Below, in pieces: positions 30,597 through 44,444 of a DNA stretch of 64,000 nt. This DNA is from Dictyostelium discoideum (lineage: Eukaryota): contig CM000154.2 of the NCBI GenBank assembly GCA_000004695.1, positions 3,264,001 to 3,328,000 of the forward strand. Reading direction: 5' to 3'. A program made the translations under genes and the position numbers. Positions within the stretch are counted from its first letter, which is position 1; every line of letters starts with the position of its first letter. The notes below the pieces were generated by a model. It was not told the origin of the DNA. It was given only the letters and a program-made list of their open reading frames with translations, and did not search any database.

Positions 30597-33500
30597 ATGG
30601 ATTTATTAAGTTATATCCATTTTATAATATTTTCAGCAATATTTGCATTATTTATAATGTATTTATTATTTTTATCATCAATTACATTTGGATTTGTAGT
30701 TAGTAAATTATTATCAACCTTTGTAATGCCAAAAGAGACATTTATTCGAATCAATGCATTTCAAATTTCATTTCTATCTGGTAAGATAGTTTTCAAAGGT
30801 TTAAAAATGGCAACGAAAAACACATGTATCAGAGTTGTAGAAGGTTCAATTACATTCAGATATTGGTTACGTAAAACTAGACAATCACAATTTGTACATG
30901 ATCAATCACCAAGTAGAATAGGTATAGAATTATCTGGTATGGAATACCTAGTATATAACAATAGTTACAAATATGATACAATTCAAGAAATTTTAAAAAA
31001 GAAAGAACAACAACAACAATCTAAAAATAATAATAATAATAATACTAATAATAATAATAATACAAATATAAATTTAAATGATATTTTAAATGACCCAAAT
31101 AAAACATCTGCAAATGATTTAAATAATATAATAAATAATGAATTAAATTCTAAAAATAGCGATAATAATAATAATAATAATGAGATAAAAGATGGAAATG
31201 GTGGTGGTGGTAGTGGTGGTGGTGAAAGTTCATCATCATCATCCACAATAATTGAAGGTGCAGATGAAAAACAAGATGAATTACCACCATTACCAGCAGT
31301 AAAAGATTTTGTATTACCAATTTTTTATAGAATGTTTTCAGCGATTTCATTTACAATTAGAAAAGGTTGTGTAATGTTATCAAATCCAGAGTTACCAACG
31401 ATTCTTGTAGTTTTATTCGATAAATCAACAGGACTTTATACAACAGATTCGGCAAATGTTATAGATTTCGATTACTATAGACAAGTTGCAAATATGGATT
31501 TAATTAATATGAAAATGAATTTAATTCCAAATAAAGATTATAATGGTAATGAAGAATTATATGTTGATAGACCACAAAAAGAAGAGTTTGTATTATAAAT
31601 ATATATATATATATATAATAAATTATTCAATATTAATATTAATTTTTTTTTTTTATTTAGTTTTGTATCATATGCATTTGAAAGTTTTAAATCAGTTTAT
31701 AAAGATATTAAATTTACATTTATGAATACAGATGAAAATTTTGAAACTAGTGATTTACCAAGAAGGAAATTAGAAGAGGAACAAAGTAAAAAGAGAGAAG
31801 CAAGTTATGATTATGGTAAGAGTACAACTGACGATATGATAAAATGTCCATCGGTTCATTTAAGTTATTATTGTGATGTACCAGGACCAGTTCAAGCTGG
31901 ACAAGATCATCAAATATTTAAAGAATTCTCAGCACCACAATGGGGGGCAGAAATTAATTTCAATTCAGGTACGATAGTTTATGGTCCATGGTCAGATAGA
32001 AATAGAGTATTATTACAAAAATTCTTTTTACCAATGGATTATGAAACTAGAAAAATCTATAAACCAATCGTTGGTCAGCCAAGACAATATGCAAACTTTA
32101 AGACTGTTATTAATTTCTCAAAGAATACAACATTTAGAATACCATTTAGAGAATTATCAAAAGATGTATCGTTAAGTAATGAAGAGATTGCTCAAAAGAA
32201 ACCAGGTTGGATCGATATTAAATTGGATGAAATCTCAACTATAACTTGTATTTCACCAATGATTATCTATAAACAAGATGGGTCGAGTAGGATGGAATTG
32301 AATGTGGCTTTGAATAAATGTAACATTTCAACAAGTTTAACAAATACAAGTTTTTTACAAGCAAATTATTTTAAATTCCTATTTGAAATCGATTATCCAT
32401 TGGTATGGAATCATCATACAGTTTGGAATGCTAAATTCGATATTGGATCACCTCAAATCTTTTTATTATCAGATGTAATTACACTTTTCAAAGATTTAGG
32501 TAACGATTGGTCAGCTGGTGAACCTGTCGATATTACAATGTTTATACCAAAAACTTTTACATTATCTTTTCAATTAACAAATTTTAAACTCTATTGTAAT
32601 GTAAATGAACAAAACATTGTAAATATTCCAAATAATTTAGAAGAGAATGCTCATTACGTTTTCACAGGTCCACATCTTCAAGCAAATTTATTATTACCAT
32701 TCAATAGTTTTCAATCTGCAAAAACTGAAATATCATTTGATGTCAATGTTAAAAAATTATCTTTAAAATTAATTTTACCAATTTATAATACAATTAGACA
32801 ACATTTAGAAGATATTGAATTTGAATCAAATGAATTAATTAATATTAATTCACCAACTCCAAATAACAGTAACAGTAATAATAATAATAATGAAAATAAT
32901 GATAATAATGAAAATTTTAAATTTAAATCAATGTTTGGTGGTTCATTAATAATGTCAAATCAAAATACTCATGGTGCAAGTCAATTTTTATTTTGTGATG
33001 ATTTTTCATTGGATGGTAAATATTTATATTATCAAAAAGTTGATCCATCTTATTTAAATTCTGTAGTTTTAAATATAGTTGGTAAGAATCCAACTGTTAA
33101 ATTATTTGGTTTTTATGTACGTTATTTCTTATTTTTAAAGAATAATTTCTTTGGTTATACAAGTCATATTATAAATTTACAAAAATATAAAGATAATATT
33201 TCAAAAGAAAAAGAACAACAACAACAACAAAAACCAACTAAAATTTCAAATAATGATGACGAAGATGCTAGTAATGATTTAGAAATTTATGTTTCAGTTA
33301 AATTACAAGATGCAACATTATTATTACCAATGGGTTTATATAGTTCAAAACAAAAAGCAACTTTAGCATTACATGAATTCCTATTAGAAATTAGATATTT
33401 ACCAACTTATTTAGATTTATATACTGATTTTAGTCCAATGGTTTTAAAAATTCCACTTAGTGATAGTGATTTAAATACAAGTGGTAGTGGTGGTAATAAT

Positions 33501-42500: not shown

Positions 42501-44444
42501 TCACAATTTTATGTGAATTTAAAGATGACATCATTTGGATTAGATTTAGATTTCTTACCAATTAGTAGATTTAATTTACAAATTGATAATATTGGTGGCA
42601 TTTATTCACCATCATCAGAGATTGAAGAATATCAAAATAATTTCAAGAGAATTTATCCACAACTTGATCAATCACATCAAAATGATTTATTCTTTTTAAC
42701 ATGTTATACAGGACCAATTAAAATCTCTGCCAATGGTAAATTGGAAGGTAATTTCAAATTGGATGGTATTGTAGTATGTGGTGAAAGAAAACTTTATCAA
42801 TTAGTGAATTATGTAAATATGTGGACTTTCCAAATGTCACCAATTAAAATTTCATTTGATTTTAATCAATCTGAAATTATGGATTTACAATCTGGTGATT
42901 TCTCAATAAGATTTTCAGATTTACCAATTAATACAAGTGAAATTAATAATAATAATAACAATGATCGTAATATTAATTGTGAAGTATCATATTCAATGTT
43001 ACAATTATTATTATCTTGTGAAACTATTACTTCAATTTTAGATATTGTTAAAAGAATTAATGAAATCATTTCTGATAAAATTAAATCTGCAAAATATAAT
43101 ATTTTAAATTCAAATGTTACAAATAATTTATTTAAAACAAAATCAACAAAACCACCACAAACTAATAATAGTAATAATAATTCCACAATGGTAACAAAGA
43201 AACAAACAAAATCAAAAATTTCAATTGGTCAAATTAAAATTAAAGGATCAAACTTTAGAGTATTATTATTTGGTTATAGTTTTAAAGATCCAACTTGGTT
43301 TAGTGTTAGTTTAGAATCTTATCAAGTTGTTTTAGATCAATCTAGAAAGAAGAATGATGAAATTCATAGACAAATTTCAATTTTATTAGGTCAAAGTTTT
43401 GTTTCTAAAATGACTGAAAATTTAACAGCTGCTTCAGATTCAAACGGTGGTGGTGGTGGTAGTGGTAGTCGTAAACATAGAGAATGGGAAATGAGAAATC
43501 ATTTCTCAAGATTAGCATCTGAAACTATAATCATTAAAATTCCAGTTTCAAGTTTAATTATGTATTCAACAGAGAGAACCAATTCAGCTGTGGAATATTA
43601 TTATCTCACTGAATTCACTGATAGTATTGCTATCTCTGTTAATCTTGGTCTTTATGCTGATCTAAGAGAAATGATTCAAATCTATGTAAAAGTTTTATCG
43701 GATGCAACTGCAAATTCACCATCACCTTCTTCACCTTCTTCTCCAACAATCACTGGTTTGTCACATTCTCAAATAATTAATCATCAAAATCATAATCAAC
43801 ATCATAATTTATCAAAAAGTTTACAACAAACTAATAATCTATTAAATGATGATAATAATAATAATAATTTAGAAAGTCATAGTAATGTTGAAACCAATAA
43901 TCATCATATTCCTCATCATCATCATTTTGATGATAATACAAGTCAAACATCAAATTCAACAACTACTCGTTATGGTCCAAATACAAAGACAAGAAAAGAT
44001 TTAAAGACTGGTCGTATCTTTGTTGAAAAGAAATTCCAATTATCACCAACTTTAAATGTATTGGGTGAATTCACACCAAAGATTACTACTGTATTTGGTT
44101 GGTTAGGTATTAAAGATATTAATTATACTATTCCATTTTACACTCATACTGGTTTAACTGATAATTTAGAAATCATCTTAAATCAATTCTTATCTTTCTC
44201 TATTGCCCTTAATAAAAATAATCAATTAATAACTCAACCAATTAATAATAATAAAAATAATAATAATAATAATAATAATAATAATAAAAATAATAATAAT
44301 AATAATAATAATAATAATAATAATAATAATAATAATAATAATAATAATAATAATAATAATAATAATAATAATAATAATAATAATAAGACTGGAAAATCAA
44401 GTAATAATAATAATAATGACTATACCAATAGAAATAAAAAATAA
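30597..44444 (+). CDS. Giant (about 4,590 aa) Csf1/BLTP1/KIAA1109/Tweek-family bridge-like lipid transfer protein, at least 2 exons: join(30597..31585,31661..44444)
   Basis: There is an N-terminal TM helix. The block GKIVFKGLKMATKNTCIRVVEGSITFRYWL parallels recalled yeast Csf1 GRIHFKNLSVIHKDYTISVLEGSLTWKYWL, IVYGPWSDRN parallels ICYGPWAQRQ, and NTTFRIPFRELSKD parallels TTWRIPTRESSKD. Exon 2 is a 12.7-kb uninterrupted ORF with many poly-N/Q/T inserts. The first-intron donor (GTTTGT at 31586, phase 2) is inferred and less certain. Confidence 0.7.
44244..44388 (+). repeat. (AAT)n of about 48 units encoding a poly-Asn C-terminal tail of the Csf1-like protein
   Basis: Direct reading shows uninterrupted 'aataat...' interrupted only by two AAA codons. 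It is in frame with the CDS. Confidence 0.9.

Follow-up and report, generated by a model that had tools for sequence, protein, structure and literature searches.

How does a protein that is expected to carry lipids along one continuous hydrophobic groove tolerate dozens of polyasparagine and polyglutamine stretches in its chain? The question was raised by a sequence-only reading of a giant plus-strand gene of Dictyostelium discoideum, located at positions 30597-44444 of a 64-kb window (64,000 nucleotides; contig CM000154.2 of assembly GCA_000004695.1, positions 3,264,001 to 3,328,000 of the forward strand; nucleotide coordinates below are those of this window), which took the gene for an orthologue of Csf1/BLTP1, a bridge-like lipid transfer protein. 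Our analysis indicates that the locus is very probably the D. discoideum BLTP1 orthologue (the counterpart of yeast Csf1, fly Tweek and worm LPD-3) and that its repeats are slippage microsatellites residing in loops, most likely neutral ones.

The open reading frame (ORF) listing of the window, whose G+C content is about 22% throughout, shows two adjoining long ORFs on the plus strand, 30597..31598 and 31722..44444. We enumerated all GT..AG introns that join these two ORFs in frame and without a stop codon, and the sole short, AT-rich candidate is a 75-nt intron at 31586-31660. Removing it gives one spliced product of 4590 amino acids (aa), in line with the roughly 4.6k aa proposed from the sequence alone. 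The parts of the gene are as follows.

30597..31585, plus strand: exon 1, encoding aa 1-329 plus two nucleotides of codon 330 (from the ORF list and the splice enumeration); its N-terminal end aligns with the N-termini of the Synstelium polycarpum and LPD-3 proteins.
31586..31660, plus strand: intron of 75 nt, GTTTGT...TTTATTTAG.
31661..44444, plus strand: exon 2, encoding aa 330-4590 plus the TAA stop codon, an unbroken frame of 12.7 kb.

The exons meet in ...YVDRPQKE-D-FVSYAFESFKS, and the residues of the junction are identical in two dictyostelid orthologues (...RPQKEDFVTYAFESFKS). Since both orthologues match the junction residue for residue, the splice is well supported, and the gene is real, with two exons and one 75-nt intron. 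As to its immediate surroundings, a 38-nt A-rich run (89% A) at 30560-30597 abuts the ATG exactly, and a 35-nt poly(T) run lies upstream at 30234-30268; such runs flanking the gene start are typical Dictyostelium intergenic sequence.

Which family, then, does the product belong to? Its N-terminus gives a clear answer. Within the first 1119 aa, Pfam recognizes both Csf1_N (PF21678; 223.1 bits, cut-off 98) and BLTP1_N (PF20413; 152.5 bits, cut-off 100), and a phmmer search of the Protein Data Bank (PDB) with the single N-terminal sequence finds chain 9cap_A, that is, the Caenorhabditis elegans BLTP1 protein LPD-3, at E=2.8e-23. A profile made from seven N-terminal sequences matches this chain only, at E=9.2e-75, with collinear matches over 35-259 and 276-980. 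Ahead of these domains, the five top windows of a Kyte-Doolittle scan all begin at aa 7-11, and this is the sole strongly hydrophobic 19-mer in the protein. The stretch aa 7-29, which aligns to the first transmembrane region of LPD-3, is predicted to be an N-terminal transmembrane helix; by homology, it would be placed in the endoplasmic reticulum (ER).

30615..30683, plus strand: predicted transmembrane helix, single and N-terminal, about aa 7-29 (Kyte-Doolittle).
31329..32822, plus strand: best Csf1_N / BLTP1_N stretch, aa 245-717, running across the intron (Pfam and phmmer).

Alternatively, the protein might belong to a different family of repeating-beta-groove (RBG) proteins (BLTP2/Fmp27/Hobbit, VPS13 or ATG2) and resemble BLTP1 by fold only, given that the beta-groove fold is common to all RBG proteins; placement of the N-terminus in Fmp27/BLTP2 was also the outcome that the sequence-only reading had named as running counter to its assignment. 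However, in three segments covering the protein, neither the Fmp27/BLTP2 families (Fmp27, Fmp27_GFWDK, Apt1 and related) nor the Chorein_N, VPS13 and ATG2 families are matched in Pfam at E<=0.1, and Fmp27-type domains are likewise absent at E<=0.01 from seven long homologues of the protein (described below). That is, this check leaves the assignment standing because Pfam gives Csf1_N and BLTP1_N above their cut-offs and no Fmp27/BLTP2 match. VPS13 and ATG2 are ruled out also by the presence of the transmembrane helix and by the lack of a Chorein_N-type N-terminus among the matches found.

The C-terminal end points the same way once relatives are added. An exhaustive HMMER search of 1.84 billion representative sequences, with aa 3339-4523 as the query, recovered 66 relatives. 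The closest is Tieghemostelium lacteum KYQ88378.1 (3790 aa, about 60% identical), which is named 'Csf1 N-terminal domain-containing protein'; other named relatives are a Synstelium polycarpum model and two shorter proteins, one from Mastigamoeba balamuthi with 3411 aa and one from a chytrid with 2887 aa. In an eight-row alignment of the target with seven long homologues found by this C-terminal query, Csf1_N and BLTP1_N are both present in seven rows (the target and six of the seven homologues), and all rows align collinearly. The useful relatives came from this exhaustive search; a word-indexed protein search was swamped by low-complexity words when queried with aa 331-1123, and with the clean aa 388-720, followed by a 7-sequence alignment, it returned one Physarum fragment and six short environmental fragments only, the word index being evidently poor in eukaryotes. 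The strongest conservation lies in the extreme C-terminal block, where the motif F.L.P.LNVLGD.TP...V.GWLGIKD...IP..TH.GLTD.LE spans aa 4447-4507.

44010..44234, plus strand: conserved C-terminal BLTP1/Csf1 block and terminal helix, aa 4447-4521 (alignment of 29 sequences).

The profile of these 29 sequences matches LPD-3 alone in the PDB (residues 3827-3968 of 4022, E=2.3e-9), and 5 of the 61 sequences in a larger C-terminal alignment match the Pfam model Csf1_C. As a single sequence, the C-terminal third yields only spurious poly-Q matches in a phmmer search of the PDB, such as FAM155A. Because the N- and C-terminal profiles each match only LPD-3, both family-defining ends are present in one collinear polypeptide. 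Two of the homologous gene models deserve a remark in their own right. The T. lacteum model begins within the transmembrane helix (MFLSSILFGF...), so that its first ~25 residues are missing. The S. polycarpum model (EP01133_P003736) lacks the conserved C-terminal block and carries several hundred extra residues that align with no other homologue, and it may be a fusion with a downstream gene.

Structure prediction was applied to the two ends as well. AlphaFold2 models were made of aa 331-1290 (from a 14-sequence alignment) and aa 3400-4590 (61 sequences), together 47% of the protein. The first model (mean predicted local distance difference test score, pLDDT, of 62; predicted template modeling score, pTM, of 0.60) consists of long beta-strands joined by helices, and Foldseek against the PDB places LPD-3 first, at E=2.5e-46 with a template modeling (TM) score of 0.51 over 817 columns; TamB, Vps13 (1.2e-4) and ATG2A (1.1e-3) come next, about 40 orders of magnitude weaker. 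The second model (pLDDT 72, pTM 0.70, 458 residues with pLDDT>=90) is a strand-rich, RBG-like rod for which LPD-3 is again the top Foldseek match, followed by Vps13, TamB and Atg2 fragments. In this model, a long helix of high pLDDT at aa 4483-4521 closes the rod and is followed by a 69-residue tail with pLDDT<50. Hence, aa 331-1290 and 3400-4590 are both predicted to form parts of an RBG rod. The appearance of Vps13, ATG2 and TamB in the Foldseek lists is what another RBG family would lead one to expect; however, the sequence profile searches of the PDB give LPD-3 only, and the Foldseek value for LPD-3 compares with about 1e-4 or weaker for the others. We therefore regard membership in a different RBG family as effectively refuted, with next to no probability left to it, and the proposed Csf1/BLTP1 orthology holds on Pfam, profile and structural grounds alike.

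With the BLTP1 assignment in place, what are the repeats? The protein is indeed rich in homopolymers, with 33 runs of at least five residues that cover 272 residues, and N and S make up 13.7% and 11.1% of it, respectively. The sizes given from the sequence alone (N30-N50, Q20 and T10) did not survive recounting: only one run reaches 30 residues, the longest N runs being N32 (aa 4540-4571), N22 (aa 1120-1141), N15 (aa 1884-1898) and three N10, and the longest Q and T runs being 13 and 7 residues, respectively. In the longest three N runs, every codon (32, 22 and 15, respectively) is AAT, and the Q runs are (CAA)n plus a few CAG. Consistent with microsatellites in frame, the arrays that Tandem Repeats Finder reports in the coding sequence all have a period of 3 or a multiple of 3, and period-1 A/T runs occur only in the flanks. 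The main low-complexity features are listed below.

30996..31295, plus strand: first low-complexity insert, about aa 134-233, with N6, N5, N6 and G/S runs.
34014..34157, plus strand: (AAT)n array, 48 copies with 82% match (Tandem Repeats Finder), encoding N22...N6 and an N-rich loop, about aa 1115-1162.
36321..36365, plus strand: (AAT)15 encoding N15, aa 1884-1898, an insert absent from both dictyostelid orthologues.
39240..39269, plus strand: (CAA/CAG)10 encoding Q10, aa 2857-2866 (codon count and Tandem Repeats Finder).
41259..41297, plus strand: (CAA/CAG)13 encoding Q13, aa 3530-3542, at the end of a modeled helix (aa 3498-3541) and not in a strand.
44235..44441, plus strand: N-rich C-terminal tail, aa 4522-4590, N3-K-N10-K-N32 and then 19 residues, KTGKSSNNNNNDYTNRNKK.

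The tail had been described as a terminal Asn48. It is instead an interrupted tract, with 45 N in the 47 residues that precede the final KTGKSSNNNNNDYTNRNKK, and the protein does not end in Asn. Its (AAT)10 and (AAT)32 segments are pure AAT, its array extends over 44243-44417 (57 copies), its pLDDT is below 50 throughout, and a shorter N-rich tail is found at the same place in T. lacteum.

The abundance of runs is beyond chance when compared to a random-sequence model but unremarkable for this genome: there are 7.2 runs per 1000 aa, covering 5.9% of residues, in the BLTP1 protein vs. 5.0 and 3.9%, respectively, in the window's 23 other ORFs with 150 aa or more, that is, about 1.4-1.5 times the neighboring ORFs. 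Coding trinucleotide repeats are abundant genome-wide in Dictyostelium (PMC9234386). D. discoideum is reported to encode nearly 10,000 homopolymer tracts, mostly of N and Q, and its coding trinucleotide microsatellites are ascribed to slippage in an AT-rich genome (PMC13093961; PMC9234386). The same sources describe these microsatellites across the genome as pure, in-frame, polar (AAT)n/(CAA)n tracts outside folded parts, as they are in the BLTP1 gene.

The question of the groove turns to where the inserts sit. Segments with pLDDT<50 account for 32% of the modeled residues and hold 117 of the 147 homopolymer residues found there. Of the remaining runs, two Q runs sit at the ends of helices in the models and three short ones fall in coil between strands; no homopolymer run lies within a strand in either model. 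For instance, aa 1119-1178, around the N22 run, are coil with pLDDT<50, and the site is 59 residues long here vs. 11-23 residues in the orthologues. AlphaFold is, however, expected to give low pLDDT over low complexity regardless, so these values are consistent with disorder and do not prove it; therefore, we sought independent evidence on the insert sites. Such evidence comes from the orthologues. Opposite gaps in both dictyostelid orthologues lie 726 residues of the target, which fall into 28 inserts of at least 8 aa rich in N, S and T. The low-complexity sites of exon 2, 27 in all, together hold 822 aa in the target, compared to 385 in T. lacteum, 419 in S. polycarpum, 236 in Mastigamoeba and 230 in the chytrid; because the same sites are shorter in the orthologues, the inserts appear to be pre-existing variable loops that have been lengthened. 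Low-complexity residues amount to 28% here, whereas T. lacteum has 10% and the chytrid 2%, and, with low complexity removed, the D. discoideum and T. lacteum proteins are of similar length (3302 and 3403 aa, respectively). That is, the repeats explain the excess of ~800 aa over the T. lacteum orthologue. The structure of LPD-3 speaks to the first insert, which falls between the blocks aligned to LPD-3 132-152 and ~184-222 and coincides with LPD-3 residues 164-180, which are absent from the cryo-electron microscopy (cryo-EM) map.

Against this background, the structural question with which we began is no longer an open one. Homologues of Tweek/Csf1 are between 2695 and 5093 aa long and share an architecture of a transmembrane helix plus a chain of RBG domains, and the variation in length has been attributed only to intrinsically disordered loops (Levine 2022, PMC7613979). 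Accordingly, the apparent conflict between groove and poly-N/Q tracts dissolves, because the inserts lie in loops, not in groove strands, and loops are the known source of length variation in the family. The 4590 aa are well within the family range, and fewer than in the fly or human BLTP1, so the Dictyostelium protein is not unusually long for its family; the description of it as inflated is correct relative to close orthologues (e.g., the 3790 aa of T. lacteum) and incorrect relative to the family as a whole.

Comparison with individual bridge proteins further narrows what is particular to this one. LPD-3 (PDB 9cap, cryo-EM) shares with it the transmembrane helix, the collinear N-terminal ~1000 aa, the C-terminal block, the RBG fold and a disordered loop at the site of the first insert. 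It has seven unmodeled internal segments in its N-terminal half and, in its C-terminal half, one segment of 115 residues and eight loops of 37-71 residues that are predicted to be disordered (bioRxiv 10.1101/2024.06.21.600134). On the other hand, identity over the structural alignment is only 16%, the middle third is not detectably similar (with a small profile), and LPD-3 has 4022 aa and loops of ordinary composition vs. 4590 aa and 28% low complexity in the Dictyostelium protein. The amoebozoan orthologues (T. lacteum, S. polycarpum, M. balamuthi and the Physarum fragment) show the same domain hits and the same loop positions; T. lacteum in particular is collinear over the full length and has an N-rich C-terminal tail as well, although it is 800 aa shorter and has 4 homopolymer runs (the longest of 8 residues) vs. 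33 (the longest of 32) here. The likeness to yeast Csf1, fly Tweek and human BLTP1 (KIAA1109) is one of family architecture, the relation resting on Pfam models built from these proteins, and the loops of those proteins differ in composition from the pure poly-N/Q microsatellites found here. Only the composition of the loops is specific to the D. discoideum protein, and this composition reflects the genome rather than the BLTP1 gene.

Taken together with what is known of the family (PMC7613979; bioRxiv 10.1101/2024.06.21.600134), these data suggest the following model. The N-terminal helix would anchor the rod in the ER, the rod would span a membrane contact site, and phospholipids would slide along the hydrophobic groove to the acceptor membrane at the C-terminal end, with the disordered loops projecting outward from the rod. 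The tracts would be microsatellites, (AAT)n, (CAA)n and the like, that keep the reading frame; most likely they arose through slippage during replication, as elsewhere in this AT-rich genome. They have presumably gathered only behind the terminal helix and in those loops between RBG elements that were exposed to solvent and variable beforehand. Owing to this placement, they would add ~28% of the residues without breaking the groove, and most likely they are passengers, neutral or nearly so.

A functional role for the tracts is the main alternative to neutrality. Under this hypothesis, the poly-N/Q loops and the N-rich tail would be kept by selection as flexible tethers, as prion-like segments for clustering in condensates, or as a modulator of C-terminal docking. 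The position of the tail is suggestive in this respect, directly after the conserved C-terminal block and helix, at the end expected to face the acceptor membrane, as is the N-rich tail of T. lacteum at this place. Further, the preference of Dictyostelium simple sequence repeats (SSRs) for frames that encode N and Q has been taken to point to selection (PMC9234386), and the authors of the LPD-3 structure suggest that disordered segments may provide needed flexibility (bioRxiv 10.1101/2024.06.21.600134). However, the lengths of the tracts are not conserved, with the orthologues having roughly half or less at the same sites and the 726 residues being gapped in both dictyostelids; the runs are pure single-codon microsatellites; their density is near that of unrelated neighboring genes; and, by published account, coding SSRs of D. 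discoideum vary as much as those in non-coding DNA (PMC9234386). A role for the tail after the acceptor-side helix found no positive support in our data either. We consider selection for function improbable, therefore, and continue to favor slippage in tolerant loops.

Several observations weigh against our reading and should be considered together. As a single sequence, the target matches no middle or C-terminal BLTP1/Csf1 Pfam model at E<=0.1, and a PDB search with a profile of five sequences over aa 1780-3400 gives no match at E<=0.1, not even to LPD-3; for the middle third, homology would follow only from collinear alignment with homologues of amoebozoan, chytrid and environmental origin. 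The structural models cover about half of the protein, with aa 1-330 and 1291-3399 outside them. As to function, homology would predict that the protein moves phospholipids in bulk where the ER meets the plasma membrane or at other contact sites; its localization, its full-length expression and the neutrality of the repeats are likewise presumed. Finally, exact look-up in the protein collection returns no entry identical to the 4590-aa model (nor one for the 4240-aa exon-2 ORF), and in a different D. discoideum assembly, GCA_054883475.1, NCBI annotates a product of 4583 aa, i.e., seven residues fewer. Separately, a mid-protein stretch free of low complexity, aa 2224-2313 (window ~37341-37610; FISPDFKEIIGDEAIIHRQGWEDISKMRHF...LFQSPLIKKAFI), is conserved, and it may correspond to the conserved helical bundle of ~120 residues that Levine (2022) described in the middle of Tweek.

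The mismatch in length, together with the absence of the exact product from the protein collection and the fact that Dictyostelium introns are short and AT-rich, could be taken to mean that the model is an artefact, in which AT-rich stretches are unrecognized introns, or several genes are merged, and the true protein is shorter than 4590 aa. Nonetheless, the frame stays open for 12.7 kb at 22% GC, the internal arrays have a period of 3 or a multiple thereof whereas the flanks are period-1, and the orthologues are collinear over the full length with shorter loops at the same sites. The NCBI annotation, which is independent, has 4583 of the 4590 residues in one product of one gene with the same stop codon (an entry listed without a name and without a precomputed Pfam hit), and the final 4681 nt of the gene are identical between the window and that assembly. 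The period-3 arrays and the NCBI single-product annotation led us to reject the idea that the repeats are unrecognized introns. Two upstream ORFs that could have served as anchors for the comparison have no entry on record. In addition, no alternative single-intron model from the window sequence yields 4583 aa; therefore, the seven-residue gap is more likely a difference in repeat length between the assemblies, which may lie upstream of window position 39764. An artefact of this kind is very improbable in our judgment, and the two-exon BLTP1 gene stands.

The window contains other loci as well. Between the BLTP1 stop codon and the cupB gene (window 44445-49763), two indels totaling 9 nt separate the window from GCA_054883475.1, with zero mismatches over 12.3 kb. 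A protein-kinase ORF (45104-46846) and an ORF with IQ and RhoGEF domains (46943-49120) are annotated as one 1311-aa gene in GCA_054883475.1 (L001 5348-9364); following this NCBI call, 45104-49120 would encode a kinase fused to a RhoGEF, the two ORFs being separated by an intron. Further downstream, 49764-52073 and 53807-56116 are a tandem pair of paralogues (91% nucleotide and 85% amino-acid identity); both encode 769 aa, with a Ricin-B lectin domain at the N-terminus. The first is exactly CupB, calcium up-regulated protein B (XP_636022.1/EAL62508.1), a match by which the DNA is recognized as that of D. discoideum. Upstream of the BLTP1 gene, a direct duplication of ~1.2 kb (9930-11115 and 14859-16044, offset 4929 nt) carries an N-rich ORF of 286 aa (10098-10958 and 15027-15887), whose copies are 100% identical and give no Pfam hit; the two copies may stem from a recent segmental duplication or else from an error in the assembly. 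On the minus strand, at 16631-25841, FNIP-repeat ORFs (16631-17488 and 19950-22211) alternate with B-box zinc-finger ORFs (22333-23220 and 25275-25841) in what looks like a locally duplicated gene pair.

What the finding means beyond annotation is modest. The gene is ordinary and essentially already known, since the orthologue of a sister species has been named from the same Pfam domain and NCBI carries the gene as one 4583-aa product; a functional description of the Dictyostelium BLTP1 was not found in the literature that we searched. A bolder view would be that the protein is a natural insertion scan of BLTP1, in which ~30 slippage inserts of 20-70 residues mark tolerant positions of the rod and a few of them, above all the 69-residue tail, have a role in flexibility, clustering or docking; we find this unlikely. 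The significance is small, and lies in two points. As a model amenable to genetics, D. discoideum is confirmed to possess a BLTP1/Csf1 orthologue that bears both family-defining ends on one polypeptide, and the positions of its inserts provide a list of permissive loop sites that could guide the tagging or truncation of BLTP1 proteins.

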